Source: Candidatus Poribacteria bacterium (GTDB lineage: Bacteria > Poribacteria > WGA-4E > WGA-3G). From it: a stretch of 64,000 nucleotides of DNA. The position numbers were made by a program, and so were the translations under genes. Of this stretch, positions 3,604 to 62,978 are shown in pieces; the stretch's first letter is position 1, and each line of letters begins with the position of its first letter. The notes beneath the pieces were generated by a model. That model saw nothing but the letters and a program-made list of their open reading frames with translations, had not been told where the DNA came from and did not search any database. The stretch lies in the NCBI GenBank assembly GCA_963663765.2, contig CAXXUA010000003.1, positions 46,042-110,041 on the forward strand. The letters run 5' to 3'.

Positions 3604-3609
3604 GACGTT

Positions 3610-11090: not shown

Positions 11091-11376
11091 TCTTCCTCCT
11101 ATTTCTAATTCTAATATTGATTTGATACTTCACGGAAACTACCAGGAACCGCTAAACGTTTTTCAACTGGAAAACTATTATATTTTCGGTTGTGTAGTCT
11201 TACCCAATCCGAACTTTTACAACTACAACCGAGTATCCGCTGTAACATTTTCGTGTTGTTGTTTTGCGTTAAGCCTTCACCGCATTTTCAAAGGATATTG
11301 TATTGACAGATATTATACCATGTCTAAGTGAAAAAAAATATCAATCTTAGATTGCAATACCTTCGCCAATAATAGA

Positions 11377-12360: not shown

Positions 12361-12590
12361 ATAGAAGAATACACATATCGTCCCTACCAAATCAACGCCA
12401 AATGCGTCAAATCAAGAAATCAACGGTATGAATGCCATTAAGGCATTCCCCGTATGGCATTTGTCGGGACTAAAAAGCGATGTTCATGTTTCAATAATCT
12501 AAAATTGATGTATAAAGTTCGGTTAGGAAACCGAACCTTGTATTAACTTTCAGTAAATCTCAATAACAGAAAATTCTTAAAACTGAATAA

Positions 12591-19194: not shown

Positions 19195-21282
19195 ATGAAA
19201 AATTACTGTTTTATGTTCATCATATTCATAGTTTCGGTTACCTATGCATATAGTGACGCTGTGACAATACCGGATGCCAACTTAACCGCCGCTGTGCGTA
19301 AAGCACTTGATTTAGGTCCAACGGATCCTATTCTGCAAAGTGAATTGGAAGAATTGGAGATGCTGCATGCCTATAAAAAAGAGATAAAAGACCTAACAGG
19401 ACTGGAAAAAGCAACAGGATTAACGATCATAAATTTGCGCGAAAATCAAATCAGTGATCTCTCGCCACTCACTAAGTTGACAAAATTGACAGTACTAAAC
19501 CTCATGGAAAATCAAATCAGTGATATCATGCCACTCACTAAGTTGATACAGTTAAAGAAATTATACCTATCGGATAACCAAATCAGTGACATCACGCTGT
19601 TCACTAAGTTGACACAGTTGACAGAACTACATCTCATGGATAATCAAATCAGTGATATCACACCGATTGCTAAGTTGACACAGTTGACAGAACTACATCT
19701 CGCGAATAATCAAATCAATGATATCACACCGATTGCTAAGTTAACGCAACTGAAAGAGTTATGGCTCAATAACAATCAAATCAGTGACATTACACCGATT
19801 GCTAAGTTGACAAAGTTGACATTATTATCTCTTGATCGTAATCAAATCAGTAATATCACACCGATTTCTGGTTTAACAGAGCTCACAACACTGTGGCTAC
19901 ACAGAAATCAGATCAGCGACATTACTCCCGTTGAAAATTTAACAGGTTTAACGCGCTTAACTGTCAAAGGAAATCCAATTCAGGATATAGAACCACTTCA
20001 GAGGTTACTGACACGACTCCCGAATTTGAGATCAGATATTCAGGTAGGTGCCCCGGACCCTACAATTCCTGATCGCAACTTAGCCAACGTTGTCCGTGAG
20101 GCACTCCGTCTGGGACGCAACGACATTATTCCACCAGAGAAGTTGGAAAAATTAGAGCAGTTGCATGCCTATAACAAAGGCATAAAAGACCTAACAGGAC
20201 TGGAAAAAGCAACCAGTTTAATGACTTTACAACTTCGCAAGAATCAAATTAGTGATCTCACACCGCTTAGTGAATTAACGAAATTAACAGGATTGTACCT
20301 CAAGGAAAATCAAATCAGTGATCTCACACCGCTCAGTGGATTAACAAAGTTAACAGAACTATCCCTCGGTGAAAACCAGATCAGCGACATAAAACCAATT
20401 GCCAACTTGAAACAGATAACAAAGTTATGGCTCTGGGGAAATCAGATTAGTGATATAATACCAATCAGTGGGTTGACGCAATTGTCTGAGTTGTGGCTGA
20501 GTGAAAATCAGATCAACGACATAAAATCGATCAAAAATTTGACGCAGTTGACAACGTTACGCCTTCATGAAAATCAGATCAATGACATCACACCTCTAAC
20601 AGAATTGGTTTCGTTAGTAGAGTTAAATATCGGAGGTAATTTAATTGACGATATAAAACCGCTTGCTGAATTAAATCTACTGACAAAGTTATGGGTTTGG
20701 CGGAATCAAATCAGTGACATTACCCCACTCAAGGATCTAACGCAATTAACCCACTTATATCTTAGGGATAATCAGATTAGTGACATCACACAACTCACTA
20801 AATTGAAGCGATTAGTGGCGTTAAATCTACAAAGGAATCAGATTAGTGACATCGCACCACTCGCGGGGTTAACGGAGATGACAGATTTAGCACTCGGTGG
20901 GAATGAAATTAGTGACATCACACCACTCGCTGGCATGAAACAATTGGCTTGGATATGGATTTGGGGAAACCGTATTACTGACATTACACCACTTGCTAAG
21001 TTAACACAATTGACAATATTGCATCTTAACAGAAACCAAATCAGCGACATAAAACCGCTTGCTGGATTAACAAAATTAAAAGAATTAGTGCTCTCTGCTA
21101 ATCAAATCAGTGATTTTAGCTATACTAAAAACCTTACAAATCTAAACCGGTTAACTGTAGGACAAAATCCAATTCAGGATATGGAACCACTCAAAAAACT
21201 CTTGAAACAGATTCCAGACTTAAAATTGGATATCCCAGCACCAGTGGAACTGAATATTCAACCACCACCTGCAAACAGGTAA
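19195..21282 (+). CDS. LRR surface protein, two-module
   Basis: 695 aa with a signal peptide. Cap IPDANLTAAVRKALDLG is repeated mid-protein as IPDRNLANVVREALRLG. NQISDITP repeats throughout. Caps NPIQDIEPLQRLL and NPIQDMEPLKKLL. Confidence 0.85.
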   Translation: MKNYCFMFIIFIVSVTYAYSDAVTIPDANLTAAVRKALDLGPTDPILQSELEELEMLHAYKKEIKDLTGLEKATGLTIINLRENQISDLSPLTKLTKLTVLNLMENQISDIMPLTKLIQLKKLYLSDNQISDITLFTKLTQLTELHLMDNQISDITPIAKLTQLTELHLANNQINDITPIAKLTQLKELWLNNNQISDITPIAKLTKLTLLSLDRNQISNITPISGLTELTTLWLHRNQISDITPVENLTGLTRLTVKGNPIQDIEPLQRLLTRLPNLRSDIQVGAPDPTIPDRNLANVVREALRLGRNDIIPPEKLEKLEQLHAYNKGIKDLTGLEKATSLMTLQLRKNQISDLTPLSELTKLTGLYLKENQISDLTPLSGLTKLTELSLGENQISDIKPIANLKQITKLWLWGNQISDIIPISGLTQLSELWLSENQINDIKSIKNLTQLTTLRLHENQINDITPLTELVSLVELNIGGNLIDDIKPLAELNLLTKLWVWRNQISDITPLKDLTQLTHLYLRDNQISDITQLTKLKRLVALNLQRNQISDIAPLAGLTEMTDLALGGNEISDITPLAGMKQLAWIWIWGNRITDITPLAKLTQLTILHLNRNQISDIKPLAGLTKLKELVLSANQISDFSYTKNLTNLNRLTVGQNPIQDMEPLKKLLKQIPDLKLDIPAPVELNIQPPPANR

Positions 21283-25956: not shown

Positions 25957-26073
25957 AAACGTGTTATGTGAGATTCTATCGCGGAGTGTAAATATATTTT
26001 CGGATTCTACTATAATATCTTTCTCCAACGGTAGGCGTGCTTTGTAAGCGCGCTGGCACATCAAGTCCCCTCA

Positions 26074-26315
26074 GCGCGCTTACAAAGCACGCCTGCAGTT
26101 GGGGAGCGCGCTTACAAAGCACGCCTGCAGTTGGGGAGCGCGCTTACAAAGCACGCCTGCAGTTGGGGAGCGCGCTTACAAAACACGCCTGCAGTTGGGG
26201 AGCGCGCTTACAAAGCACGCCTGCAGTTGGGGAGCGCGCTTACAAAGCACGCCTGCAGTTGAGGAGCGCGCTTACAAAACACGCCTGCAGTTGGGGGGAG
26301 CGCTTACAAAGCACC
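26074..26315. repeat. 32-bp tandem array, ~7.5 copies (gcgcgcttacaaagcacgcctgcagttggggag)
   Basis: Unit starts at 26074, 26106, 26138, 26170 and onward. An inverted copy of the 21-bp core at 26031-26052 precedes the array. Confidence 0.9.
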
Positions 26316-26823
26316 AAATCAACGGTATGAATGCCATTTAGGCATTCCCCGCCTACCATCGGGGGCGCGCTTACAAAGCACCATAGGCGTTAATTTAAGA
26401 AAATATTGTTGTCATTTTTCTTGTGGGAGGGGTTTTCAACCCCGATTTGAGAGGAAAAGCGCATAAATTCGGGGTTGAAAACCCCTCCCACAAGAGGTCA
26501 AAATCCTTAAATTGACGCTTATGGGGTTGGGTAACCCAACCCCTACAAACGTGTTATGTGAGATTCTATCGTGGAGTGTAAATATATTTTCGGATTCTAC
26601 TATAATATCTTTCTCCAACGGTAGGCGTGCTTTGTAAGCGCGCTGGCACATCAAGTCCCCTCAGCGCGCTTACAAAGCACGCCTGCAGTTGGGGAGCGCG
26701 CTTACAAAACACGCCTACTATGGGGGAGCGCTTACAAAGCACCAAATCAACAGTATGAATGCCATTTAGGCATTCACCGCCTACCGTTGTGTGCGTAAGT
26801 CCTGCTTGGTTTCATTCAACTGA

Positions 26824-35643: not shown

Positions 35644-35750
35644 GCGGGGAATGCCTACAGAAGCATGCGCGTGTGGCATGCTCCATGATTCATACCGTTG
35701 ATTTCTTGATTTGGCGCTGGTATATCAAGTACAACAGTTCTCCCCCGCTG

Positions 35751-36127
35751 GTATGCGTGCTTTGTAAGCGCGCCCCCCTACTGCCCCCCACGCAGGCGTG
35801 CTTTGTAAGCGCGCCGATTTTTTGGCAAGCGTTCTCCCAAACTGTAGGCGTGCTTTGTAAGCGTGCTCCGTTCTCCCAAAAACTGTAGGCGTGCTTTGTA
35901 AGCGCGCCGATTTTTTGGCAGGCGTGCTTTGCGAGCGTGCTCCCAAACTGCAGGCGTGCTTTGTAAGCGCGCTCCGTCTCCCAAAAACTGCAGGCGTGCT
36001 TTGTAAGCGTGCTCCGTTCTCCCAAACTGTAGGCGTGCTTTGTAAGCGTGCTCCGTTCTCCCAAAAACTGCAGGCGTGCTTGTAAGCGCGCCGATTTTTT
36101 TTTTGGCAAGCGTTCTCCCAAACTGCA
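35751..36127. repeat. array of 9 copies of the 21-bp hairpin core ggcgtgctttgtaagcgcgcc (variable 33-48-bp spacing)
   Basis: Cores near 35755, 35794, 35838, 35886, 35920, 35951, 35993, 36038 and 36071. The array is interrupted at 36127/36128 by a MITE. Confidence 0.9.
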
Positions 36128-36555
36128 CAGGGTTATTCAGTTTTCAATATTTTTGATAATATTTTACTATGTCGTTGATTTTATGTGTTGCCATCTTGTC
36201 CATGTCTTTAGTCCCGTAGGGACGATATGTTTATAGAAACATGTTATCTATCCCTCTTGAGTTCCGTAGGAACGACATAGAAGAATAAACATATCGTCCC
36301 TACCAAATCAACGCCAAATGCGCGTGTGGCATTTGGCGGGACTAAAGAGCTGGGGCGTGTATTCGTTTTCTATAAACATATCGTCCCTACCAAATCAACG
36401 CCAAATGCGCGTGTGGCATTTGGCGGGACTAAAGACCGATGTTCAGGTTTCAATAATCTAAAATTGATGTATAAGGTGCAGTTAGGAAACTGCATTTGGG
36501 TATTAACTTTCAGTAAATCAAAATAACAGAAAACTTTTAAAACTGAATAACCCTG
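36128..36555. mobile_element. MITE family B, complete copy with perfect 9-bp target-site duplication
   Basis: TIRs cagggttattcagtttt / aaaactgaataaccctg. The 9-mer caaactgca is present at 36119-36127 and again at 36556-36564. The flanks join to restore the host array unit. Confidence 0.85.
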
Positions 36556-37360
36556 CAAACTGCAGGCGTGCTTTGTAAGCGCGCCGATTTTTTTGCAAGC
36601 GTTCTCCCAAACTGTAGGCGTGCTTTGTAAGCGCGCCGATTTTATGGTAGGCGTTCTCCCAAACTGTAGGCGTGCTTTGTAAGCGCGCCGATTTTATGGT
36701 AGGCGTTCTCCCAAACTGTAGGCGTGCTTTGTAAGCGCGCCGATTTTATGGTAGGCGCGCTTACAAAGCACGCCTGCAGGGGAATGGGGGGATGGCGCGC
36801 TTACAAAGCACGCCTGCAGGGGAATGGGGGGATGGCGCGCTTACAAAGCATGCCTGCAGGGGAGGGCGGGGATGGCGCGCTTACAAAGCACGCCTGCAGG
36901 GGAGGGCGGGGATGGCGCGCTTACAAAGCACGCCTGCAGGGGAGGGCGGGGATGGCGCGCTTACAAAGCACGCCTGCAGGGGAGGGCGGGGATGGCGCGC
37001 TTACAAAGCACGCCTGCAGGGGAGGGCGGGGATGGCGCGCTTACAAAGCACGCCTGCAAAAGGGATAAGAGGGGCGCGCTTGAAAAGCACGCCTGCAGTT
37101 ATAGGGGCAGTTGAGGGGCGCGCTTGAAAAGCACGCCTGCAGTTATAGGGGCAGTTGGGGGGCGCGCTTACAAAGCACGCCTGCAGTTATAGGGGGCAGT
37201 TGGGGGGCGCGCGGACAAAGCACGCCTGCAGTGGGGGGCGGGGATGGCGCGCTTACAAAGCACGCCTGCAGTTGGGGGTGCAGGTGGGGGGCGCGCTTAC
37301 AAAGCACGCCTGCAGGGGAGGGCAGGTGGGGGGCGCGCGGACAAAGCACGCATACCAGGG
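36556..37360. repeat. continuation of the core array (4 copies), then orientation flip at ~36752 into ~15 inverted-orientation copies (8 at an exact 40-bp period)
   Basis: ggcgcgcttacaaagcacgcctgcagg occurs at 36755, 36795, ... 37035 (40-bp period). Further copies at 38-46-bp spacing run to ~37355. The spacers are G-rich. Confidence 0.9.
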
Positions 37361-40299: not shown

Positions 40300-42056
40300 T
40301 TGAATACTTATTTCGAAAATAAAAAAGGTTACTTATTCATTTTTTTATCGCTATTGATGATACTTGGCGGACAAGCTACAAGCGTTTCGGATGTAGTAAC
40401 TGCTGTTAGTGAACGGACATCACAAGTGCGTGATGTTATCGTATCCGCTGCAGGTGTAAACGCCGCAACAGACGTAACCGACACCGATTTAGCAGAAATA
40501 AACAGTCTTGACCTTAGAATCGAAGGCATCACTCAACTGAAATCAGGCGATTTCTCAGGCTTAACAGGACTAACGAATCTGAACCTATACGGTAATCAAC
40601 TCAGCAGTCTACCTGAAGGGGTTTTTGACAATCTAAGCAGCCTATCTGAACTAAATCTGAGTAAGAATGAATTTGCTTCCTTACCCTCAAATCTATTCCG
40701 TAATCTCAAAGGATTAGATGTCCTTGACCTGAATTACAATGAATTTACCACGTTACCTTTGGGTTTTTTTAATGGTCTCAGTATTGTCATCAAAATTAAG
40801 TTGAATGGAAACAACATTAGTTCTTTACCACTTGGCATAAATGACAATCTTCCCACTTTGGAGGAACTCCAATTGGCTGGGAATAGTCTAAGTTCATTAC
40901 CTGTTGATATATTTGACGAACTTTCATCACTCTTAACTCTTAATCTGATTGGAAACAAATTCACTGAATTGCCAAGTGGAATATTTGATGCCTTGTCATC
41001 TCTGGGGGACTTCATATAGAAAATAACAGTTTAACATCTTTACCATCTGGTATCTTTGATGGACTGACTTCTATAAGATGGATATACGCTCATCATAATC
41101 AGTTGAGTTCATTGCCATCTGGTCTATTTGACAATAATTCAACTCTGGTGACGCTAAAATTAAACGAGAATCAGTTGAGTTCATTACCGTCAGGTATTTT
41201 TGACAATTTGAGAACACTGAAATGGCTACATTTATATAAGAATCAGTTGAGTTCATTGCAATCAGGTATGTTTAGCGATCTTGTGAAACTGCAAGAGTTA
41301 AAACTATATAATAATCAGTTAAGTTCGTTGCCAGACGGTATATTTGAAAACCTCAGTTTCCTAGTAGAACTTCTGTTGGGGAACAACGCTGTTGATCCCT
41401 TGCCTATTGTAGTGTCATTAGAGAAAGTTGAGGAAGGACAATTCAAGGTAGTTGTTCATACAGGCGCACCATTTTATATGAATATACCAATCAGTATCAA
41501 TAACGGAAGCACTAACGATGGAAAAACCAACTTAAGTGTAGAAATACATAAAGGCAAAATCACAAGTCGCACTGTCAATGTAGTACGAACAGAGGGAACA
41601 ACGGAAGCGGTCACAGTAAATATCGGTAATCTACCATCTATACCTGCAAATTATATTCATTATGGATATGCCCTTATAACATCTGCTGATCTACCGTTAG
41701 AAATCATACCTGCAATATCGGGTGCACCTACCAAAGTTACTAATGTAGCCTTGACTATTCCTAATAATAACGCACTTTTATCCAACTATCCAAACCCGTT
41801 CAATCCTGAAACATGGCTACCGTATCAGTTATCAACAGCATCGGATGTTACAATAACAATTTACAATATGAGAGGTGTTGTTGTGCGACGGTTGATGTTA
41901 GGACATCAGAAGGCAGGTTTCTACACAAGTCGTCCCCGTGCTGCACATTGGGATGGTCGGAATGCTATCGGTGAAAAGGTTGCGACAGGTGTGTATTTCT
42001 ACACATTCAAAGCGGGTGATTGGACTGCTACGCGCAAGATGTTGATACGGAAGTAA
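40300..42056 (+). pseudogene. LRR protein with T9SS-type C-terminal sorting domain, split by a 1-nt frameshift at a G5 run (may be an assembly error)
   Basis: Track ORFs 40300..41019 and 41103..42056 are one gene. Adding one G at 41004-41008 gives ...DALSSLGGLHIENNSLTSLPSGIFDGL... The C-terminus NYPNPFNPETW...GVYFYTFKAGDWTATRKMLIRK is a Por/FlgD-Ig-like tail. Confidence 0.7.
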
Positions 42057-42272: not shown

Positions 42273-43286
42273 AACGTGAGTTCGGATATAAAGTCCGAGT
42301 TTGTGGTATTTAGAGAACCCTTTTGATATAATGAAATCATTATCCAATACAAAAGGAGTTCTCTGATGTTTATCATATCACTTTTCTGTAATATTGACGA
42401 CTTTTTTAATGTCTATAAAAAATATAAAGCATCTCAACAACTGCCAGCGGATCGCCCCTTTGAAATGCGAGGCCGTCCACGCACTCTACATCCCAGTGAG
42501 GTGATGACGATCCTTATCCTTTTTCATCAAAGCGATTATCAAACCTTAAAAGCTTATTATGAAAAACACGCCCGGCACTACTTGCGGTGGGCATTTCCGA
42601 ACTTAGTGAGTTATAACCGCTTTGTGGAACTTCAACAAGAAGTCCTTGAACCTTTGTCTATATATCTTTACACATGCTTTGGCATCTGTGATGGTATTTC
42701 CTTCGTAGATTCTACGCCAATGCCAGTTTGCCACAATCGCGGAATCCCAACACATAAAGTCTTTGTTGAACAGGCATCCCTTAGCAAGAACACTGTCGGT
42801 TGGTTCTACGGGTTCAAACTTCATCTGTGTGTTAACACTTCTGGCGAACTTTTAGGTGTTGAGTTCACACCTGCTACAACAGATGACCGGAAAGTTGTTC
42901 CGAAGTTGGGAACCCACTTATATGGCAAACTCTATGCGGATAAAGGCTATATCTCACAAATCCTGCGTGAATACTTGCAAACCCAAGGTATTGAGTTGGT
43001 ATATAAGGTTCGCAAGAACATGAAGCCGCAACCTTTATCAGACTTTGATGAGCTCTTGCTGAAAAAACGGATCCTGATTGAATCGGTTATCAAAGAAATA
43101 AAAACGCAGACACAACTTCAACATACGCGGCATAGAAGTTTTATCAATTTCCAAGTGAACATGGTGGCTGCTTTAATTGCTTATACCTACTTGGAGAAGA
43201 AACCCTCGTTGAACTTGCCGGAATGCAAACGGGTACCGACAGCAACGCTTTCTTTAGAACCCTAAATCTTTTTCCGAACTCACGTT
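42273..43286 (+). mobile_element. IS982-family insertion sequence
   Basis: Perfect 14-bp terminal inverted repeats aacgtgagttcgga (42273-42286) and tccgaactcacgtt (43273-43286) bracket a single transposase ORF. Total length 1014 bp. Confidence 0.8.
42366..43265 (+). CDS. IS982 family DDE transposase
   Basis: N-terminus LFCNIDDFF is characteristic of IS982. The DDE context is FVDSTPMPVC, LYADKGYIS, LIESVIKEIK. Confidence 0.8.
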   Translation: MFIISLFCNIDDFFNVYKKYKASQQLPADRPFEMRGRPRTLHPSEVMTILILFHQSDYQTLKAYYEKHARHYLRWAFPNLVSYNRFVELQQEVLEPLSIYLYTCFGICDGISFVDSTPMPVCHNRGIPTHKVFVEQASLSKNTVGWFYGFKLHLCVNTSGELLGVEFTPATTDDRKVVPKLGTHLYGKLYADKGYISQILREYLQTQGIELVYKVRKNMKPQPLSDFDELLLKKRILIESVIKEIKTQTQLQHTRHRSFINFQVNMVAALIAYTYLEKKPSLNLPECKRVPTATLSLEP

Positions 43287-43295
43287 TTCAATAGG

Positions 43296-44234
43296 TTATT
43301 TGTCCCGTTTTTCTTTATACTTCGCTATTGCTCCGCGTTCCGCCAGTTCGGATTTTGCGTAATATGCTGGCATCTCTGAACTTTTCCACCTGCCAGCAAT
43401 TTGCATCTCAACAACGGAAGCACCGGCTTGTGCCAAAGCGACCGCAGAACCCACACGCAACGAATGCCCAGCAATGAAACCATCAACACCGGCATCAGAT
43501 GCACGCTTCTGTATGATTCGCCTTGCAGAGAAATCTGTCAACCTTTCCGATTGGATGTGATCACCCCGGCGTATCCTACGAAACAAAGCACCCGATGTTA
43601 TGTCCGCACGTTTTTGATACCTTTTCATAATGTCCTGTGTTTCATTTGTCACATAAAGCGCGGTTGATGCACCTTCTTGATCTGTCTTGGATGTCCGAAC
43701 TATCAAGGCTTGTTTTTCAAAATCCGATACATCTACCACGACAACTTCTGAAACACGTAGCAAACAATCAGACATCAGACGGATCATTGCACTATCACGT
43801 AAGCCTGCGATCGTGTTTTCAGATTCAGCGAAAGCACAGACCCTTTCCGTTTGTTGCCAATCAAGTCCTGTGACTTGTCCACGTCCGCGATTTTTTCCTT
43901 CGCGCCGAATGCCTGCTAATGTCCGAGTGGTGACCGGTAAATCATAATTCTTGCTTTCATTCCGCAGTTGCCAACGCGCCGCAGCCACCACAATAGATAT
44001 TGACGAAGGCGCGCGTCCTTGTCCATACAAATCTGTAATATAAGCAGCTAAAGCACCATCAGAAATCTCTAAGTTATGATCCGAGAGGTACGTCTGAATC
44101 CCCGCCAAAGCATGCCGATATGCTTTCAATGTGTTCGGCGCGATACTTGCCCTGATTAGATTTTCAGTCTCTTGTCTGAGTGTGATGTTGGCACTTGTGT
44201 CTTTATCTGATTGGACGATGCTTGTGTTATTCAT
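43296..44234 (-). CDS. tyrosine site-specific recombinase, Cre-like
   Basis: C-terminal catalytic region GHSLRVGSAVALAQAGASVVEMQIAGRWKSSEMPAYYAK (HxxR ... W ... Y) closely parallels the Cre GHSARVGAARDMARAGVS..GGW..Y block. An upstream Arg lies in LLRVSEV. Confidence 0.8.
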   Translation of the reverse strand: MNNTSIVQSDKDTSANITLRQETENLIRASIAPNTLKAYRHALAGIQTYLSDHNLEISDGALAAYITDLYGQGRAPSSISIVVAAARWQLRNESKNYDLPVTTRTLAGIRREGKNRGRGQVTGLDWQQTERVCAFAESENTIAGLRDSAMIRLMSDCLLRVSEVVVVDVSDFEKQALIVRTSKTDQEGASTALYVTNETQDIMKRYQKRADITSGALFRRIRRGDHIQSERLTDFSARRIIQKRASDAGVDGFIAGHSLRVGSAVALAQAGASVVEMQIAGRWKSSEMPAYYAKSELAERGAIAKYKEKRDK

Positions 44235-44973: not shown

Positions 44974-45783
44974 TTATGATAATTGATGAATTAGAGTTGC
45001 TAAATCATGAATTGCCCTTCCATATATTGTAACTTGAGAACCTACTGCAACATGAGAATCTATTGAACTTCTAAGTATTGACAAGGTTGGACCACCGTGG
45101 AAACGCAGTTTTGCTTCTCTATAATGTGTTTTAGAATCATTTCTGATTTCAAATTCGCTCATATTTTTATTATTATACCGAAGAACAACCTTTAGATCAT
45201 CCATCTGATTCATATTTCGCGCCTTAGAGTTTTTTATCTGCAGTTTAGGGGATAGAACTCGAACAACGTCTTCAGCCGAAAAGATATGATAATGTTTTTC
45301 ATCAATAGGAGTTTCTTTACCAGATTGCTCTACAGGTAAAATTGCAAGGTATTTTACCTCAAGACCATTAAAAAATGCCTTTGACAAAAACATCGGGAAA
45401 ATGCCTGGCTTATGTAATTCATCTTTTAGCTGACGCATAATAGGTTGAAGACGCTTTTTCGCTACTTGTTTGTCCGCTTCATAATCCTTAAATTCTTCTG
45501 GGAACGCATCAATGCAATCAATCATCAAGTTCGCAATACTGCCTATATCATGGAATTCCGTATTATTTACAAGCCGGTCTCGTGAATACAAGAATACTTG
45601 CCAATACTTGTTCCCTTTTACTGAATAACTCCTACCGTCACTATCCAATACATCCGTTTTTTTTGTCCTACCCCCAACAACCTTTCCATCTATAAGATCA
45701 GAAAATATCTTTTCATTTTTATGACCTTGTTTTTTTTTGCCGGATGCTGCTTCTGAAGTCATAGCACGTCTTTTTTTAGCCAT
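44974..45783 (-). CDS. putative type II restriction endonuclease (unclassified)
   Basis: 269 aa. Its start overlaps the methyltransferase stop by 1 nt (TAATG). It has a possible PD..(S/E)xK-like motif TDVLDSDGRSYSVKG. I see no similarity to enzymes I can recall. Confidence 0.5.
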   Translation of the reverse strand: MAKKRRAMTSEAASGKKKQGHKNEKIFSDLIDGKVVGGRTKKTDVLDSDGRSYSVKGNKYWQVFLYSRDRLVNNTEFHDIGSIANLMIDCIDAFPEEFKDYEADKQVAKKRLQPIMRQLKDELHKPGIFPMFLSKAFFNGLEVKYLAILPVEQSGKETPIDEKHYHIFSAEDVVRVLSPKLQIKNSKARNMNQMDDLKVVLRYNNKNMSEFEIRNDSKTHYREAKLRFHGGPTLSILRSSIDSHVAVGSQVTIYGRAIHDLATLIHQLS

Positions 45784-46703
45784 TACCCTTCCTTTACAAT
45801 TAATAATTCGTGAGATTTCTTAACATGACTCATTCCTTTTTCTATGCGATTTTTTCCGATCCGGGTTTCCCCCTGACCTAATGTATACTGCCAGCGAACT
45901 TCAACTATCTTAAAGTCCGAATACCATTCTCGAATAGTTTCGCAATCGTTATAGGACAAGACAAAACCGCCTTTATGATCATGGAGCAAGTTACGCAGCA
46001 ATTCGTGCTGAAATCCCTTGTGATGCACAGGAAAATTTCTCTGTGGATAGATCCCTTTAAACATATTTCCATCATCCAGATAATAAGGTGGATCGCAATA
46101 AAGGAATTCTCCATTATGACAGGGTATTGTCTCCTCAAAACTTCCATGATCAACTTCTAATGTTGGACAGTGAAAATGTCTCACTTTTCCTACAGATGTA
46201 ACATACCTTTTCGGTGATTCATAAATCTTTGACATCCAACCCAGAAATCCTGGACCATACGAAAGATTATGATTAAACCAGTAATGTGCAGCCAACTCCA
46301 ACGGATCAGAAATAAGAACTTCTCCAGTCCAGTGTCCTTTGAGAACACTTTTTATCTCTTTGTATTTCTCTTGAGTCGGTTGCCATTCTTCCAGCTTATC
46401 CGCGAGTTCGTTAGCAGATTTCAATTGCATCTGCCAATAGTTAACAAGAATATCAAATATATCATAGGCTTTGACCCGCATACCGAGTTCTTTCGCACAA
46501 GCAATTTCAACAGAGCCACCCCCAATGAATGGGGAGGCAAGCTTCTCAATGTTTGATGGGATATGTTCAACAATATGCCCTACGCCTAAACTTTTTCCAC
46601 CTGCATAACGGATAGGAAGTCCGTTATAACGTGTGTATTTATATTTTCCTTTGCTCCTAAGCATATGAAGGAACAACTCTTTTGATTGGAATAAATTTTG
46701 CAT
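45783..46703 (-). CDS. Dam-family (D12 class, alpha) N6-adenine DNA methyltransferase
   Basis: Motifs RYAGGK, the AdoMet motif FIGGGSV and the catalytic DPPY, in alpha-class order. Confidence 0.8.
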   Translation of the reverse strand: MQNLFQSKELFLHMLRSKGKYKYTRYNGLPIRYAGGKSLGVGHIVEHIPSNIEKLASPFIGGGSVEIACAKELGMRVKAYDIFDILVNYWQMQLKSANELADKLEEWQPTQEKYKEIKSVLKGHWTGEVLISDPLELAAHYWFNHNLSYGPGFLGWMSKIYESPKRYVTSVGKVRHFHCPTLEVDHGSFEETIPCHNGEFLYCDPPYYLDDGNMFKGIYPQRNFPVHHKGFQHELLRNLLHDHKGGFVLSYNDCETIREWYSDFKIVEVRWQYTLGQGETRIGKNRIEKGMSHVKKSHELLIVKEG

Positions 46704-46950
46704 TGGGATTGTCCAGCTTCCAGCTTAATTATCCCTCCGCTAAGATGGGATGGGTGGCAGACATACCATGCAATATGCTTAGCAATGCCACCCAAAGCTG
46801 GTTTTAAAGTATAACAAAATTACAAAATAAACACAAATATTATATACAAAACATGTATAAATTACGCAAAAGTTTGAAATATATTACATGCAAATCCACC
46901 ACGACTCCACGAACTTAGCAGGCTTGCTACACCTCCTGCTTATTTCTCTA

Positions 46951-47208
46951 TCATAACCGCCTCTGATTTTTATACTGGTGGAGAGCGCGCTGGATAAGAT
47001 CTAAGAGTGTCCCACCCTCTCTGTCAAGAATTTCTGTAATTTCGGGATTATGCCGGAGGTCAATCAGAAAATCTGCAACGTTCATTGTGATCGCAGCACT
47101 TTTCAACGTACCATGCGATGTATGCATGCGATGCTCCCGTCCGAATTCTATTAGCTTTTTGTGTCGACCACCAATAAACGACAATTGCACTTGGGCAGGT
47201 TTCGGCAT
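46951..47208 (-). CDS. hypothetical small protein
   Basis: 85-aa ORF inside the island with no recognisable motif. Confidence 0.35.
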   Translation of the reverse strand: MPKPAQVQLSFIGGRHKKLIEFGREHRMHTSHGTLKSAAITMNVADFLIDLRHNPEITEILDREGGTLLDLIQRALHQYKNQRRL

Positions 47209-47320
47209 GGCTTAACCTCTGTGAATTAATTTATTAATATCATGCCATGATTCTAAAATAATATCAAATATAGAAAGCTTTGAGACACACTTTTGATGTT
47301 AACAGAAAATGAAATATCTC

Positions 47321-47349
47321 TTGACACAAACATCCAATCGTGATAAAAT
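47321..47349 (+). promoter_or_regulatory. near-consensus sigma70 promoter TTGACA-17-TAAAAT driving the structured-RNA candidate
   Basis: ttgaca at 47321-47326, a 17-nt spacer, taaaat at 47344-47349. Confidence 0.6.
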
Positions 47350-47356
47350 AGAAACC

Positions 47357-47603
47357 AATATTGATAGCAAGCGCGAACTCTGAACTGAACCAAATGCTAC
47401 AAATTCTAGGGCGAAAGATACTCAATCTCACCGTCCTGATTACAACCGCACAAAAGAGGCGACGGTCTCGCAGTTGTGATAAATCCTGTGAGTGAATCCA
47501 AGTAGCCGGTAGCCTATCGGTTACCGGTTGCTTTTATACACTGGAAAGTTAGAGTAGGATTCATACACAGGAAGGGAACACGCACCCCGTGTTTTTCCTT
47601 TCC
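47357..47603 (+). ncRNA. candidate structured sRNA or 5' leader, copy 1
   Basis: It starts just downstream of the promoter. It has a 5' hairpin ttgatagc../..gctacaa, the conserved segments agggcgaaagatac and aaaagaggcgacggtctcgcagttgtgataaatcctgtgagtgaatcc, a GTAG-headed hairpin ccggtagcc-tatc-ggttaccgg, and then the hairpin ggaagggaacacg..cgtgtttttcctttcc (47570-47603). Confidence 0.5.
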
Positions 47604-47665
47604 TGTTGGCAGACTACAAACACACCATAAATACAAGGTATACAACACATTTTAGGGGAGAGATC

Positions 47666-48148
47666 ATGGCAAATGGCATTTTACAAAATCTGACAAAGGA
47701 CTTAGAGCTTTACGCAAGATTCATAGCAAAATTATCCGCATTGGTTGCCCATAGGTTTATTATGAAGCCATCATCAAATACTGTGCACCCATCAGATATT
47801 GAAAAGCAATCAGATATTGTGCACCATTCAATTACTGTGCAGCCCTCAGATATTGTGCTCCCATCAGGGGACATAATAAAACATTGGACTTCAGTTATTT
47901 ACACTATCGGTGATCATGTCTATCACTTCGTACACTCCGCATCAAACATACTTATACCAATAATTCTATCTCTCTTACTAATCAGAGTGAGTTGTAAAAT
48001 CTTGCTACTTAGACCAGATAGAACTCCTGGATACCTGCTCATACTAATTTATAGAATACCTGGTATCTCACATATCAGGAACTGGCTACGAAAATTGAAT
48101 ATCACTTTTAAAAAAGAGGAATCCCATTTCCATAAATCACAAGAGTAG
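47666..48148 (+). CDS. hypothetical small membrane protein
   Basis: ATG at 47666 lies 4 nt after an aggggagag RBS; the track start at 47606 is a TTG inside the leader. There is one clear TM segment (NILIPIILSLLLI). The central part is encoded by degenerate tcagatattgtgc repeats. Confidence 0.4.
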   Translation: MANGILQNLTKDLELYARFIAKLSALVAHRFIMKPSSNTVHPSDIEKQSDIVHHSITVQPSDIVLPSGDIIKHWTSVIYTIGDHVYHFVHSASNILIPIILSLLLIRVSCKILLLRPDRTPGYLLILIYRIPGISHIRNWLRKLNITFKKEESHFHKSQE

Positions 48149-48203
48149 TGGAAAGGGCTGCTGGACATTCTCCGGCGCACTACCGAAACTTACTAAATAA
48201 CAC

Positions 48204-48400
48204 TTGATGGATTCACACAATCGCGAGACAATAAAACTTGATATTGATAGCACAAGCGATCCAATCTAAACACACTTGCTATCAACTCCAGGGCGAAAGA
48301 TACACAATATACAAAAGAGGCGACGGTATCGCAGTTGCGATAAATCCAGTGAGTGAATCCAAAGTAGACGGGAAGCAAGCAACCACCGAGAGCTTCGCTT
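48204..48400 (+). ncRNA. candidate structured sRNA, copy 2 (includes a weaker promoter-like TTGATG-17-GACAAT)
   Basis: It aligns with copy 1 from the -35 box through gtgagtgaatccaa. The 5' hairpin ttgatagcacaag../cttgctatcaa is retained. The terminal hairpin has a completely different sequence (ggaagcaagc..gcttcgcttcc) but occupies the same position after GTAG. Confidence 0.45.
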
Positions 48401-48539
48401 CCTACCCTACTAATTACACCCTCCCCTAAATATTTTGAATGTTCAGAATGCCCCACAACGCATTTCTTAACAACCCCGTGTGGTGTAACTCTCAGCTGTT
48501 TCCATGTTTTAGTGCCTCACACGAATTTTCGCACACGTT

Positions 48540-49925
48540 TGACTGACATACTCCCCAAGCTAAAGCATGGGGGTTCTTAGTTCTTATATTGGAAAAGGTT
48601 TGAGTTGTTTCCAAACGACTTTTCCTGCTTCCGTGTCTCGTGCCCTTTCCTGAACAGCGTTGGGTCTTATTTGCACTCCACAGGCGTGACTTTCGGTGTG
48701 CCCCACCGTAGTTGGTTTCAAGTTTATTGCAGCGTTGACATCTCTATCTATAGACATATCACATTGACTGCAGTGATACATTCTTTCTGAAAGTGTAAGG
48801 TCTTTCTTTTTGTGTCCACAACCGGAACAGGTTTTACTACTTGCAAAGAACTGATCTGCTTCTTTGACAGGTATACCGCGCACTTCCGCTTTTGTCTTGA
48901 GTTTTAGCAGGAAACCGCCTAATGCTGAATCTGACAATACTTTTGCGAGGTTTCTGTTCTTCAGCATATTAGTAACCTTGAGTGTCTCAATACCGATCGC
49001 AGCGGCACGGTTGACAATCTCTGTATTTGCTTTGTGGTGTGCATCATTTCGGATACAAGCGATACAATAGTGGATACGTTCTAACTTGTGTTTCTGCTTG
49101 AACCAGTTTTTTGACTTGAAAACACGCCGGCTCAACTTGCGTTGTTCCCGCTTTAGTTTTCTCTCATAGCGTTTCAGAGGTCTTGGATTCTCATATTTCG
49201 TACCATTACTCAAGGTGGCAAGGGTGTTGATGCCTACATCTATACCGATAACAGGGTGTGTTGAATTGTCAACGACTTCGGTGTCCTCTGTTTCTACGGT
49301 GATAGATACAAACCAACGATGTGCTGTCCTTGAAATCGTCACGCTGATAATCTTCCCTACAAAACGCAATGCTTGACGCATTTTGACCCAACCAACCTTA
49401 GGCAACCGGACCCTCTTGCCTTCAACTTTCACAGATTGTTCGTCTGTTGTCCATGTATCCCGAATCCCACGCTTTTTGAATCGAGGAAACCTCGCACGTT
49501 TGCTAACCCAATTCGTAATCGCTTGACCCAAATTCTTGATCGCATATAACGCTGCACGTTGATCTTGGGAACGTGTTCAATCATACTCTTTCTTCGTTTT
49601 ATTGAAGTTAATGTTTAATGTCCGCCATGATTGGAAGGTGTCCTGATCTAAACCCGCTTTAAAATCTGATAACGCTTGATTGTAGGCAAACCTCGCATAA
49701 CCACATTGCTGAGCAAACCATGTGCGTTGTTTGTTGTTCGGATTCAATGTAATCTTGTGTGTTTTGTAGGGCATACCTAACTCCTGTAGGGTGCTGACTT
49801 CCATTGACGTGGTGTGATAGGTGCGTCAACACCTATCACGGAGTCAGTCCTATAAGGATACCATAGAAGACATATAAATGTCAACGTTTTTTGACCCAAG
49901 CATAAATGCTTGGGATTGTCAGTTA
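48540..49925 (-). mobile_element. IS200/IS605-family element of the tnpB-only (IS1341-like) type; boundaries approximate
   Basis: Matching subterminal hairpins sit at both ends in the same orientation: cccaagca-taaa-tgcttggg (49895-49914) and ccccaagc-taaa-gcatgggg (48553-48572). There is an extra hairpin gtgataggtg..cacctatcac (49814-49839) and no tnpA. Confidence 0.7.
48584..49804 (-). pseudogene. tnpB: tnpB (RuvC-like RNA-guided nuclease) interrupted by a single in-frame TGA
   Basis: Track ORFs 49577..49804 and 48584..49531 are in the same frame, giving ...NKTKKEYD*TRSQDQRAALYAIKNLGQAITNWVSKRARFPRFKKRG... The RuvC Asp (GIDVGIN), the Glu (IGIETLKV), the zinc finger CSGCG..CSQC and DRDVNAAINL are all intact. 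Confidence 0.85.
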
Positions 49926-57460: not shown

Positions 57461-58958
57461 AATTTAAGAGTTTTGACCTTTTGTGGGAGGGGTTTTCAAC
57501 CTTGATTTATAGTAAAATATACAAATAAGTTGACATATCTTCTGTAGGAGCGATCTCCGAATCGCGACTGAACGCCTTGATAGTCGGGAATCGGAGTTCC
57601 CTCCTACAAACAAACTGTCAAGGTAATTGTAAAATCCAATATAAGAGAAAATGTACGTAGAATCGGGGTTGAAAACCCATCCCACAAGAGAAACACGAAC
57701 ACTTTTTTCTTATAGTGAAATATACAATTAAGTTGACATATCTTCTGTAGGAGCGATCTCCGAATCGCGACTGAACGCCTTGATAGTCGGGAATCGGAGT
57801 TCCCTCCTACAAACAAACTGTCAAGGTAATTGTAAAATCCAATATAAGAGAAAATGTACGTAGAATCGGGGTTGAAAACCCATCCCACAAGAGAAACACG
57901 AACACTTTTTTCTTATAGTGAAATATACAATTAAGTTTACACTTTTTCTGTAGGCGGGGAATGCCAATAGGCATTCATACCGTTGATTTCGATCTCCGAA
58001 TCGCGACTGAACGCCTTGATAGTCGGGAATCGGAATTCCCTCCTACAAACAAACTGTCAAGGTAATTGTAAAATCCAATATAAGAGAAAATGTACGTAGA
58101 ATCGGGGTTGAAAACCCATCCCACAAGAGAAACACGAACACTTTTTTCTTATAGTGAAATATACAATTAAGTTTACACTTTTTCTGTAGGAGCGATCTCC
58201 GAATCGCGACTGAACGCCTTGATAGTCGGGAATCGGAATTCCTTCCTACAAACAAACTGTCAAGGTAATTGTAAAATGCACTATAAGAGAAAATGTACGT
58301 AGAATCGGGGTTGAAAACCCCTCCCACAAGAGAAACACGAACACTTTTTTCTTATAGTGAAATATACAATTAAGTTTACACTTTTTCTGTAGGCGGGGAA
58401 TGCCAATAGGCATTCATACCGTTGATTTCGATCTCCGAATCGCGACTGAACGCCTTGATAGTCGGGAATCGGAGTTCCCTCCTACAAACAAACTGTCAAG
58501 GTAATTGTAAAATCCACTATAAGAGAAAATGTATGTAGAATCGGGGTTGAAAACCCCTCCCACAAGAGAAACACGAACACTTTTTTCTTATAGTGAAATA
58601 TACAAATAAGTTTACACTTTTTCTGTAGGCGGGGAATGCCAATAGGCATTCATACCGTTGATTTCGATCTCCGAATCGCGACTGAACGCCTTGATAGTCG
58701 GGAATCGGAGTTCCCTCCTACAAATAAACTGTCAAGGTAATTGTAAAATCCACTATAAGAGAAAATGTACGTAGAATCGGGGTTGAAAACCCCTCCCACA
58801 AGAGAAACACGAACACTTTTTTCTTATAGTGAAATATACAAATAAGTTTACACTTTTTCTGTAGGCGGGGAATGCCAATAGGCATTCATACCGTTGATTT
58901 CGATCTCCGAATCGCGACTGAACGCCTTGATAGTCGGGAATCGGAGTTCCCTCCTACA
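57461..58958. repeat. higher-order tandem array, 7 units of 203 or 236 bp
   Basis: The unit marker ctgtagg occurs at 57542, 57745, 57948, 58184, 58387, 58623 and 58859. The 236-bp units carry an extra hairpin module cggggaatgccaataggcattcataccgttgattt. Confidence 0.9.
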
Positions 58959-59086
58959 CCTGAAAGTGTAAGAATAATTCTAAAATCTACTATAAATTGA
59001 CGCCTATAGTTCGGTTAGAAAACCGCACCTACCAGGGAGTGTAGACATATTTTGGATTTCACTATAATATACAGGAGAATTGACTC

Positions 59087-60340: not shown

Positions 60341-61114
60341 TCAAGGGAAATCTATTTGTAAACTCTGATTTCGTTCCAAAAGTCTTTGAAGCACTCCCAT
60401 ATCCTGAATTAGATTTTCTTTGATATGTAAATGCATTAAACCCGTTAGATTCGCTATAGGATCAATGTTTCTGATCTGATTCTTATCCAATGCTAAATGT
60501 GTCAATCCTGCCAAACCAGCAAGAGGAGAAAGAACAGATATTCGATTTCCGCTAAGCCATAAGTGCGTGAGACGTTTCAAATTAGAAAGTGGTTTGACAT
60601 CACTGAGTTGATTCCGTCTGACGTTTAGCAACTGCATCTGAGTCAAGTTAGCAAGCGGCGAAATATCACTAAGTTGATTGTCCCAGAGTCCTAATTCTGT
60701 GAGTTGTGTTAACCCTGCCAGCGGCGTAATGTCACTGATTTGATTTTTGCCGAGTCCTAATTTCGTGAGTTGTTTTAAATTGGCAAGTGATGTAATATCC
60801 CTGACGTTATTGTCCCAGAACTCTAAGTATGTGAGTTGTGTCAATCCACTAATAGGTGTGATGTCGTCAATCTGATTCTTCTCAAGTTCTAAAACTTTTA
60901 AAGCTGTTGCCTTCTCCAGTCCTGTTAGGTCTTTTATACCTTTTTCTTCAGCATGGAGTTTCTCTAATTCTACCAATTTCCTTTGTGGAACAAGATCACT
61001 TACACCTAACCCCAGTGCATCTTTCACAGCAGCTAATAAGTTGGGATCTGGTATTGTTACAGATGTACTCGCCATAGCGTGATATTCCTTTACTCTAGTT
61101 TGGACAATTTTCAT
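60341..61114 (-). CDS. LRR protein without an obvious signal peptide
   Basis: Cap IPDPNLLAAVKDALGLG, 22-aa NQISDITPL repeats and the C-terminal cap NLIQDMGVLQRLLERNQSL. The start may be the ATG at 61075 (MASTSV...). Confidence 0.8.
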   Translation of the reverse strand: MKIVQTRVKEYHAMASTSVTIPDPNLLAAVKDALGLGVSDLVPQRKLVELEKLHAEEKGIKDLTGLEKATALKVLELEKNQIDDITPISGLTQLTYLEFWDNNVRDITSLANLKQLTKLGLGKNQISDITPLAGLTQLTELGLWDNQLSDISPLANLTQMQLLNVRRNQLSDVKPLSNLKRLTHLWLSGNRISVLSPLAGLAGLTHLALDKNQIRNIDPIANLTGLMHLHIKENLIQDMGVLQRLLERNQSLQIDFP

Positions 61115-61274
61115 CTTGTAGAAGTTGATTATTCAACAGAACGTCTATTTTTCTACGTGTTTCGTATATTTGTGAAACTGGAGAAAATGATGTGCTCCAG
61201 CGGAGTGCTATGTTGGCTGACAATGTGACTATAAACATATTGCTCCGCTGCAGCAAAGAAAGTTCCGTTTTGGT

Positions 61275-61916
61275 CAGGGTTATTCAGTTTTAAAAGCTTT
61301 CTGTTATTTCGATTTACTGAAAGTTAATACCCAAATGCAGTTTCCTAACTGCACCTTATACATCAATTTTAGATTATTGAAACCTGAACATCGCTCTTTA
61401 GTCCCGACAAATGCCATACGGGGAATGCCTTAATGGCATTCATACCGTTGATTTGGCCCATTTGGCGTTGATTTGGTAGGGACGATATGTTTATAGAAAA
61501 AGAGTGACCTTCCCAGCTCTTTAGTCCCGTAGGGACGATATGTTTATAGAAAACGAGTGACCTTCCCAGCTCTTTAGTCTCGTAGGGACGATATGTTTAT
61601 AGAAAACGAGTGACCTTCCCAGCTCTTTAGTCCCGTAGGGACGATATGTTTATAGAAAACGAGTGACCTTCCCAGCTCTTTAGTCCCGTAGGGACGATAT
61701 GTTTATAGAAAACGAGTGACCTTCCCATGTCTTTAGTCCCGTAGGGACGATATGTTTATTCTTATATGCCGTTCCTACGGAACTCAAGAGGAGTAGATAA
61801 CATTTATCTATAAACATATCGTCCCTACGGGACTAAAGACATGGACAAGATGGCAACACATAAAATTAACGTTATAGCAAATAATCATCAAAAAAACCTA
61901 AAACTAAATAACCCTG
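61275..61916. mobile_element. MITE family B, long copy with an internal 53-bp x5 tandem array (61478-61760)
   Basis: TIRs cagggttattcagtttt (61275) and aaaactaaataaccctg (ending at 61916). Flanking 9-mers cgttttggt / agttttggt match at 8 of 9. Internal unit starts at 61519, 61572, 61625, 61678 and 61731. Confidence 0.85.
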
Positions 61917-62030
61917 AGTTTTGGTCATTATGTCTTGATTTGGTAACATAAGCGGTGCACCAATTTCTTATCAAAACATGTTGGAAAAAAATTGTCCAAC
62001 TATAGTCTTCCTTTAGAGTGGAGGAGTATT

Positions 62031-62978
62031 TTAGTTTCCTGCTGGTTGTATTTCAATATCAATTGCCAATTTCGGTAGTTGTTCCTTGAGTTTTCGGAGT
62101 GGTTCCATATCCTGAATTGAATTACCCGTGAGGTATAATTCCTTTAACTGTGTTAGATTAACGAGCGGGTTCATGTCACTGATCTGATTTCTGTTTAGGG
62201 ATAACACTTCCAATTGCGTCAAATTCGTGAGTGATTGTATGTCGCTAATTTGATTATCAGACAAGTATAACGTTGTCAACTGTGACAAGTTAGCAAGTGG
62301 TTTTATATCACTAACTTGATTCAACTCAATTCCTAATCTTGCCAGCTGTGTCAAATCAGTAAGGGTGTTTAAATCACTGATCTTGTTTTTATCCAACCAT
62401 AACAACTCCAGCTGCGTCAAGTTAGCAAGCGGTTTTATGTCGATGATTTTATTATCAGATAGGTATAAATTAGTCAACTGTGTCAAGTTAGCAAGCGGTT
62501 TTATATCACTGATTTTGTTTTTGTCCAACCATAACGTTGTCAACTGTGTCAAGTTAGTGAGTGGTTTTATATCGCTGATTTTATTCGCAACGATGTCTAA
62601 ATCTGTTAACTGCGTCAAACCTGTCAGAGGTGTTATATCACTAATCTGATTATCCCCAAGGTATAAGTTTGTCAATTGGTTTAGTTCTGTGAGAGGTGCC
62701 AGGTCCTCAATCTGATTCTTGCGAAGTTCTAAAGTCGTTAGTCCTATCGCCTTTTCTATACCCATTAAGTCCTTTATACCTTTACTGTCAGCACTAAGCT
62801 TCTCTAATGCTTGAAATTTCTTTTGTGAAATAGGCTCGGTTGGATCTAAACCGAGTGCTTCACGTACAACAGCGGCTAAGTTTTCATCTGGAATTGTCAC
62901 TTCTGGTCCGGCTGAGCAACTGAGGAAAATAACTAATACTACAAACAGGCTGAAAATGCGTTTCATAATCTTTACCAA
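62031..62978 (-). CDS. LRR surface lipoprotein
   Basis: Signal peptide with Cys (VIFLSC), cap IPDENLAAVVREALGLD, 22-aa repeats and the C-terminal cap NSIQDMEPLRKLKEQLPKL. Confidence 0.85.
   Translation of the reverse strand: MVKIMKRIFSLFVVLVIFLSCSAGPEVTIPDENLAAVVREALGLDPTEPISQKKFQALEKLSADSKGIKDLMGIEKAIGLTTLELRKNQIEDLAPLTELNQLTNLYLGDNQISDITPLTGLTQLTDLDIVANKISDIKPLTNLTQLTTLWLDKNKISDIKPLANLTQLTNLYLSDNKIIDIKPLANLTQLELLWLDKNKISDLNTLTDLTQLARLGIELNQVSDIKPLANLSQLTTLYLSDNQISDIQSLTNLTQLEVLSLNRNQISDMNPLVNLTQLKELYLTGNSIQDMEPLRKLKEQLPKLAIDIEIQPAGN

Follow-up and report, generated by a model that had tools for sequence, protein, structure and literature searches.

The stretch of DNA analyzed here, hereafter the window, comprises 64,000 nucleotides (nt) of Candidatus Poribacteria bacterium (assembly GCA_963663765.2, contig CAXXUA010000003.1, positions 46,042-110,041 of the forward strand) and contains a small integrative mobile island in which two related RNA units are located. 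Beyond a gene of 85 amino acids (aa), the island continues with unit 1 (also called copy 1), an open reading frame (ORF) of 160 aa on the plus strand, and unit 2 (copy 2; Table 1). Unit 1 starts with a promoter and is predicted to fold into helices P1 to P4 and two terminator-like hairpins, T1 and T2. For so few sequences, the comparisons set out below give good support to unit 1, the complete version of the two, as a genuine candidate for a conserved RNA with strand-specific structure and no counterpart in Rfam. It is best regarded as a new family of leader-type RNA carried by a rare integrative element.

The 160-aa protein had only three homologs among 5.8 billion proteins, encoded on contigs L001, L002, and L003. 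L003, a Logan contig of 992 nt, carries a full ortholog of unit 1 (L003-1), the ORF, and, straight after the stop codon, a second promoter unit (L003-2) that has only the promoter and P1 in common with the other units and is missing the core. L002, a contig of 1153 nt from the European Nucleotide Archive (ENA), begins inside unit 1 and holds the 3' half of the unit and the ORF; what is left of the unit 2 promoter comes next, and the sequence after it is unrelated. Contigs L002-L004 and L013 derive from ENA and Logan assemblies SRR17504023, ERZ23495297, ERZ25071132, and ERZ26167216. The 85-aa protein had 13 homologs, and among the contigs fetched, only L004 and L013 carried a unit as well. In both of these contigs, the 5' half of the unit lies on the strand opposite the 85-aa gene, with a 113-aa gene between them. 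Since the L004 and L013 units are 98% identical, we treat them as one lineage and a single event, and about five independent copies of the unit are known. In L004 (3140-3233) and L013 (3170-3267, both on the plus strand of the loci), a frameshifted integrase pseudogene ending in ...GKLASHSL lies head-on to the truncated unit, and the bases CA(T/C)TCACTGG at the junction are common to the pseudogene and the unit core. A further contig, L009 (ENA ERZ25068511, 38.4 kb and labelled circular), is phage-like and encodes an 82-aa homolog of the 85-aa gene, with the structural genes (portal and GpA-type terminase) on one side and the early genes on the other. This homolog is not accompanied by a unit, which implies that the 85-aa family is borne by phages or mobile elements more widely than the RNA.

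Searches beyond these contigs returned little. Five DNA patterns compared with GTDB genomes, JGI metagenomes, and IMG/VR gave nothing or chance matches inside unrelated genes. No match to plasmids or phages was obtained by BLASTN, nor to phages by tblastn of the 85-aa protein, and protein-guided locus searches of IMG/VR with alignments of the 85-aa protein and the 160-aa ORF found no relatives. A search of the whole window against Rfam release 15, suggested in the first-pass annotation of this DNA, gave no match at the gathering score. At E values up to 10, positions 46900-48900, L003, L002, and L004 returned only noise, and no family recurred across the loci. The first-pass annotation had likewise matched the motif to no RNA family known to it. 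Going by these sequence searches, we conclude that the RNA family is real and is confined, in the data that could be reached, to a handful of ENA and Logan metagenome contigs.

In a promoter scan, the unit 1 promoter matched at 11/12 positions, with a TG ahead of the -10 element, and its location predicts a transcription start near 47356. Both promoters described previously were found, TTGACA-17-TAAAAT in copy 1 and the weak TTGATG-17-GACAAT in copy 2. Across the homologous units, both hexamers are found again at the same 17-nt spacing, as TTGACA/TAAAAT in window copy 1, L003-1, and L003-2 and as TTAACA/TAGAAT in L004 and L013. The spacers and flanks vary, such that even the promoter spacer of L003-2 is unlike that of L003-1. 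In all three of the window, L003, and L002, T1 and T2 were both scored as terminator-like, and an unconserved spacer of 50-105 nt separates T2 from the Shine-Dalgarno sequence. The order of promoter, structured RNA, terminator-like hairpins, ribosome-binding site (RBS), and ORF was kept in the three loci that cover the region upstream of the ORF, which bears out the proposed succession of copy 1, a hairpin with a U-run, the RBS, and the 160-aa ORF.

Table 1. Coordinates of the two RNA units and of other genes and features of the mobile island in the window.
Feature	Position	Strand	Description
Unit 1 promoter	47321-47349	+	-35 TTGACA (47321-47326), 17-nt spacer, extended -10 TGnTAAAAT (-10 hexamer 47344-47349)
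P1	47361-47403	+	5' hairpin UUGAUAGCA ... UGCUACAAA; stem sequence conserved, loop varies
P2	47408-47437	+	AGGGCG pairs with CGUCCU; inner AGAU/AUCU stem; holds conserved AGGGCGAAAGA box
P3	47439-47480	+	variable hairpin AUUACAAC ... GUUGUGAU; GCGA/UCGC stem at tip; -15.2 kcal/mol, z -3.1
Conserved core	47478-47499	+	GAUAAAUCC-N-GUGAGUGAAUCC; 47484-47499 is the 5' strand of P4
T1	47500-47538	+	15-bp hairpin AAGUAGCCGGUAGCC-UAUC-GGUUACCGGUUGCUU, then UUUAUA; terminator-like, nested in P4; -23.9 kcal/mol, z -6.8
P4, 3' strand	47557-47572	+	GGAUUCAUACACAGGA; past the U tract of T1
T2	47570-47603	+	second terminator-like hairpin, U-rich 3' side; base overlaps P4 at 47570-47572
Shine-Dalgarno and 160-aa ORF	47654-48148	+	AGGGGAGAG (conserved); ATG at 47666
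Unit 2 promoter	48204-48232	+	TTGATG-17-GACAAT; 8/12 positions, under scanner threshold, weak
Unit 2, partial paralog	48239-48411	+	P1 48244-48285 (perfect 9 bp); AGGGCGAAAGAUAC 48290-48303; core 48319-48360
Unit 2, short hairpin	48327-48342		UAUCGC-AGUU-GCGAUA
Unit 2, terminal hairpin	48362-48411		unlike that of unit 1, without U tract; -18.7 kcal/mol
Tyrosine recombinase	43296-44234	-	island gene
101-aa ORF			after the tyrosine recombinase in gene order
59-aa ORF			next after the 101-aa ORF; no match in family searches
Restriction-modification pair	44974-46703	-	putative restriction enzyme and D12-class adenine methyltransferase
85-aa gene	46951-47208	-	divergent to unit 1; kept beside the unit in L004 and L013
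IS605-type element	48440-49900 (ends approximate)	-	frameshifted tnpB (49804-49577, 49531-48584); abuts unit 2

The sequence of the two copies confirmed that they lie where they had been placed. When 47300-47620 was aligned to 48190-48450 with MAFFT, long blocks proved identical between copy 1 (47321-47603) and copy 2 (48204-48411). A 42-nt core, GGCGACGGTNTCGCAGTTGNGATAAATCCNGTGAGTGAATCC, occurred exactly twice in the 64 kb (47458-47499 and 48319-48360) against an expectation of 0 (100 shuffles), and AGGGCGAAAGATAC was present at 47408 and 48290. Moreover, a profile built from the homologs gave E values of 5e-53 and 1e-39 for these copies and matched nowhere else in the window. Judged by these alignments, copies 1 and 2 are true paralogs. 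Their alignment is not free of gaps, as had been reported, and needs a 21-nt indel plus several 1-3-nt gaps. What had been taken for a 24-nt insertion into copy 1 is a loss of 21-24 nt from copy 2, because the segment is present in L003, L004, and L013.

Within the window, copies 1 and 2 are alike in P3 and the core (about 94% identity), and units 1 and 2 of L003 are alike only in the promoter and the P1 loop (93%). By this comparison, the paralogs appear to behave like recombining modules. The P3 common to both window copies may reflect gene conversion, or P3 may be a common specificity hairpin of the nutL/nutR kind.

The two copies are not equivalent as RNA candidates, as the first-pass annotation had presented them; the proposal holds for copy 1, and copy 2 is a partial paralog with a weak promoter. 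Unit 2 does not have the 3' strands of P2 and P4, T1, or T2, has no gene downstream, and runs into the IS605-type element. The 5' hairpin P1 is perfect only in copy 2 (9 bp); in copy 1 it has 5 contiguous pairs and three more past a bulge. The basal pair of P1 is U-A in copy 2 and A-U in L004, L013, and L003-2. P2 is invariant in window copy 1, L003, L004, and L013. The conserved segment that had been taken to be single-stranded includes AGGGCG, which is predicted to be paired as half of P2, because the copy 1 segment that is deleted in copy 2 supplies the CGUCCU 3' strand.

Other parts of the earlier description also changed. The 3' end of P3 runs into conserved GAUAAAUCC, and L003, L004, and L013 carry another hairpin at the P3 site, CGCUAC...GUAGUG, whose tip differs between L003 and L004/L013 yet still pairs. 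The mutually exclusive stems GCGA/UCGC and UCGC/GYGA that had been proposed sit in P3, which is alone in lacking conservation between elements (identity to L003 is 37%), and we do not retain them. The hairpin that follows GTAG in copy 1 is present, not just as a terminal hairpin but as T1, the earlier of two terminator-like hairpins. The long-range pairing of GUGAGUGAAUCC with GGAUUCAUACAC in copy 1 is upheld, since in L003 and L002 it survives two compensatory changes and two that preserve a wobble. The partner suggested for copy 2 failed in this respect, since GGATTCACAC (48210-48219) lies in the promoter spacer and therefore would not belong to the RNA.

Conservation was uneven along the unit. 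Between the window and L003, identity was 97% in the promoter, 97% in the core plus T1, 75% in P1, 78% in P2, 37% in P3, and 46% in the spacer before the RBS, compared to 82% and 71% for the N-terminus and C-terminus of the ORF. By these values, conservation in some blocks of the non-coding unit exceeds that of the gene beside it. The same modular fold, with P1, P2, P3, and P4 enclosing T1, followed by T2, was predicted independently for the window and L003. Plus-strand folds had energies of -85.5 kcal/mol (z -5.7) for the window and -93.7 kcal/mol (z -6.9) for L003, and the minus-strand folds were weaker (z -1.35 and z -4.8, respectively). We rejected a coding explanation of the units: the small ORFs over them use a different frame in each copy and are broken or not conserved in L003.

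Base-pair counts in the 3' half were made on an alignment of window copy 1, L003, and L002, with P4 at 47484-47499/47557-47572 around T1 at 47500-47533. All testable cells of P4 plus T1 paired (79/79), and pairing fell to 27-46% when the 3' partners were slid by 1-3 columns. P4 contained two compensatory changes, U-A to A-U at 47487/47569 and A-U to U-A at 47496/47560. One-sided changes that preserved pairing as wobbles were found at 47489/47567 and 47490/47566 in P4 and at 47512/47521 in T1 (G-U/A-U), and the pairing of T2 likewise survived the one-sided changes A-U/G-U and C-G/U-G. Because each G-U pair would be a C-A mismatch on the minus strand, these changes fix the strand as plus. Taken together, the sequences and their comparison show the paralogy of the two units, the conserved promoter, the strand-specific structure of the 3' half, and the conserved layout from promoter through RNA, hairpins, and RBS to ORF.

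We tentatively favor the reading that unit 1 is a cis-acting leader, with its two successive terminator-like hairpins as a gate on transcription or processing toward the 160-aa ORF. In this model, a near-consensus sigma-70 promoter would start a folded 5' leader RNA of ~250 nt near 47356. The RNA would form P1, P2, and an element-specific P3, followed by single-stranded GAUAAAUCC and a long rod in which T1 is nested inside P4, with T2 after the rod. Polymerase would pass T1 and T2 to reach the ORF, and the leader would set the amount of transcript that arrives there, either through termination or through processing of the P4/T1 rod. Unit 2, with its promoter, P1, and core, would be the product of duplication and gene conversion in the element; its gating half would be gone, and it would now face the IS605 insertion. 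No conserved promoter was found in the spacer ahead of the ORF when the window, L003, and L002 were scanned. The ORF would therefore have to be transcribed through T1 and T2. Moreover, the position of the P4 3' strand past the U tract of T1, and its covariation, imply that transcripts passing T1 matter functionally. We infer transcription, termination at T1 and T2, and regulated read-through from sequence features. The promoter, pairing, strand, and layout of copy 1 thus lend partial support to the two possibilities raised in the first-pass annotation, a stand-alone small RNA (sRNA) or an attenuator- or riboswitch-like leader.

Several observations weigh against the leader reading. In a shuffle control of the covariation, 96/500 shuffles of the three sequences reached the observed value, which is not significant, and these three sequences cover the 3' half, compared to four independent ones for the 5' half. 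P1 and P2 are nearly invariant and are therefore neither supported nor contradicted. The high identity of the conserved blocks could come partly from recent recombination in a mosaic element. We found no conserved antiterminator alternative to T1: the alternatives predicted from truncated folds differed between the window and L003, and the sole overlap between pairings was that of P4 with T2, over 3 nt. In addition, L001 has the ORF without any unit, L004 and L013 retain the 5' half of the unit without the ORF, and the spacer of L002 contains a promoter-like site that matches at 10/12 positions.

The retention of the 5' half without the ORF in L004 and L013 would be expected if the units were stand-alone, trans-acting sRNAs, with unit 1 stopping at T1 to give about 180 nt or at T2 to give about 250 nt and the ORF expressed by leak-through. 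Such an RNA might act on targets of the element or host, or as an immunity RNA like phage P4 CI or phage P1 c4. A strong promoter followed by two terminator-like hairpins is consistent with this explanation, L003 unit 2 resembles a short promoter-to-hairpin RNA, and the variable P3 that is common to both window copies could be a target-recognition element. However, a search for antisense targets of P3 gave best island duplexes of about -29 kcal/mol, which is weaker than the mean of -34.6 for shuffled queries. Formation of P4 also requires sequence past T1, and the ORF is without a conserved promoter of its own. We regard the sRNA explanation as unlikely, though a credible competitor. The mosaic sharing between units, with P3 and the core common to the window copies and the promoter and P1 loop common to the L003 units, points in another direction, namely that the unit has no dedicated RNA function. 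It would then consist of recombining, portable promoter and 5' untranslated region modules, possibly with operators for ribbon-helix-helix-like proteins, and of ordinary terminators or stabilizing stem-loops. The remnant of the unit 2 promoter in L002, followed by unrelated sequence, the near absence of covariation in P1 and P2, and the divergent arrangement of the promoters with the 85-aa gene all agree with this explanation. It does not account readily for the compensatory and wobble-preserving changes in P4, T1, and T2, for the strand-asymmetric stability, or for the invariance of AGGGCGAAAGA, CAAUCUCACCGUCCUGAU, and GAUAAAUCC across elements whose neighbor proteins are 58-82% identical. 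By our own inference, the P1 arms, about 33 nt apart, also fit a dimer operator poorly. We consider this explanation rather unlikely.

The location of the 5' domain, beside the promoter and directly upstream of two terminator-like hairpins, would also suit a cis-acting processive antiterminator of the HK022 putL/putR, Bacillus EAR, or Tn916 canT type. P1-P3 and GAUAAAUCC would then make polymerase that had started at the promoter of the unit itself read past T1 and T2, and these two hairpins would insulate the ORF from other transcription. The occurrence of two paralogous copies in one mobile element parallels putL/putR (PMC9378689), P3 is common within an element and different between elements, and the joint use of insulating terminators and an antiterminator RNA that acts in cis is known from integrative and conjugative elements (PMC11658703). 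By contrast, the 5' domain is about 125 nt with three stem-loops, compared by description to the about 70 nt and two stem-loops of put RNA (PMC9378689). Copy 2 has nothing to antiterminate, L003 unit 2 is without the core, and the authors of the canT study caution that function of this kind is not readable from sequence (PMC11658703). On balance, we think an antiterminator quite improbable. Even less can be said for the unit as an insertion sequence (IS) or transposon end, an attachment site, or a decayed integrase gene on the opposite strand, an explanation that is largely refuted and that we give very little credence. Copy 2 does abut the right end of the IS605-type element, and the L004/L013 unit stops at GATAAATCCAGTGAATG, beyond which the sequence reads as the antisense of the integrase pseudogene, with the break on His-Ser-Leu codons. 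That the unit might prove to be a known IS or transposon end had been named beforehand as one outcome that would overturn the candidate, and this is not what was found: only copy 2, and not copy 1 or the units of L003, L002, and L004, touches the IS605-type element, which is single-copy in the window, and copy 1 and the L003 and L002 units have no IS nearby. The L004/L013 break represents one event. No direct repeat of the core flanks the island. There is no conserved minus-strand frame, L003 and L004 are put out of frame with each other by a length difference of 2 nt, the minus-strand translations had no Pfam match, and the integrase of the window itself uses other codons at HSLR.

A broader proposal can be drawn from the same features. 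The units may represent a new class of promoter-proximal RNA modules that reprogram polymerase in the manner of put and canT, or an RNA immunity determinant, in which P3 would confer element-specific specificity and T1 within P4 would act as a read-through or processing switch. We hold this proposal to be doubtful. If it were true, the units would amount to gene control by RNA alone in the integrative elements of an uncultured lineage, probably of the FCB group. Confirmation of the favored leader reading would add a structured RNA family, so far uncatalogued, in control of a cargo gene that lies on small integrative elements beside a restriction-modification system in a poorly sampled lineage. 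The geometry of unit 1, with its strong promoter, three-hairpin domain, and terminator inside a covarying helix, makes it experimentally tractable. The reach of either result is limited by the tiny distribution of the unit, with its few independent copies.

The product of the 160-aa ORF combines a conserved helix at the N-terminus with a variable tandem repeat of 6 aa and a C-terminal half that is hydrophobic, and it is probably a membrane-bound, repeat-containing protein. The repeat (18 nt, 6 aa; 47773-47867) differs in copy number in all four homologs, and the N-terminal and C-terminal parts are conserved. No family was found for this ORF in Pfam, PHROGs, PADLOC, or NCBIfam, and its structure model is all-helical at low confidence. 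The model of the 85-aa protein was weak and had no fold match. For the neighbor genes in general, Pfam, PHROGs, PADLOC, NCBIfam, and AlphaFold/Foldseek (predicted confidence, pLDDT, of 66 and 52, and no fold match) were uninformative as to function. The 59-aa ORF looks ribbon-helix-helix-like to our eye, without a family match.

The IS605-type element is not part of the unit, and a second copy is absent from the window. Weak Rfam matches to HgcC (E 1.8) and RAGATH-18 (E 2) on the minus strand at 48531-48684 cover the 3' end of its frameshifted tnpB and the sequence just past it, in an orientation toward unit 2, and probably correspond to the omega or right-end RNA of the element. A DDE_Tnp_1 IS (window 42274-43288; transposase 42366-43265) with 13-nt terminal inverted repeats, ACGTGAGTTCGGA and TCCGAACTCACGT, has its insertion site within a few bases of the stop codon in the island tyrosine recombinase gene. 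Chromosomal genes beyond the island encode a TonB-dependent receptor and leucine-rich-repeat proteins with type IX secretion system (T9SS) sorting domains, and are suggestive, though not proof, of a host in the FCB group. The leucine-rich-repeat genes have a 66-nt periodicity (1300-5100, 19400-21100, 40300-42056, and 60650-62730), and one has a T9SS C-terminal sorting domain. Tandem-repeat arrays are located in the window at 11344-11586, 12095-12388, 26041-26346, 35745-37350, 57507-58964, and 61423-61812, with periods of 32, 49, 32, 40-52, 203/236, and 53 nt, respectively. Several of these arrays are built on common seeds, GTAGGGACGATATGTTTATAGAAAA at 16 places and GGCGCGCTTACAAAGCACGCCTGCAG at about 15. 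They were ruled out as clustered regularly interspaced short palindromic repeats (CRISPR), as whole units repeat without unique spacers.

Among known systems, type III toxin-antitoxin loci have a promoter, a non-coding RNA, a terminator that sets the RNA-to-protein ratio, and a protein gene, and are often carried on mobile or defence islands (PMC3401426). Unit 1 has the gene order of toxIN, cptIN, and tenpIN, with a terminator before the protein and a restriction-modification system next door. We rejected membership in this class, since the RNA does not contain a tandem repeat array (Tandem Repeats Finder reported repeats only in the ORF, at 47773-47867) and the ORF has no ToxN, CptN, TenpN, or AbiQ-type match in Pfam, PADLOC, PHROG, or NCBIfam. 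Attenuation and riboswitch leaders resemble the unit in having a promoter, a conserved structured RNA, terminator-like hairpins, an RBS, and an ORF on one strand, with non-coding blocks more conserved than the gene. The unit differs from them in that searches gave no known aptamer match and no conserved terminator/antiterminator alternative, and in that it has two tandem hairpins, the first nested in a longer covarying helix, and a P3 that is swapped wholesale between elements.

A nested arrangement of this kind is present in tI/sib of phage lambda, where the terminator hairpin lies in a longer helix whose distal strand is past the U tract, so that the full rod forms only in read-through transcripts. 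There, the rod is an RNase III site downstream of the regulated int gene. T1 is similarly nested in P4, and its helix would be completed by read-through only; unlike tI/sib, the unit lies upstream of the ORF, not downstream of a regulated gene. Compared to put RNA, the unit differs in size and fold, again by description, and its second copy is incomplete, without a terminator or gene after it. Nevertheless, like HK022 put, it occurs as two paralogs in one element (PMC9378689), and like put, canT, EAR, and conAn2 of pLS20, it is a promoter-proximal cis RNA candidate carried on a mobile element upstream of terminators (PMC9378689, PMC11658703).

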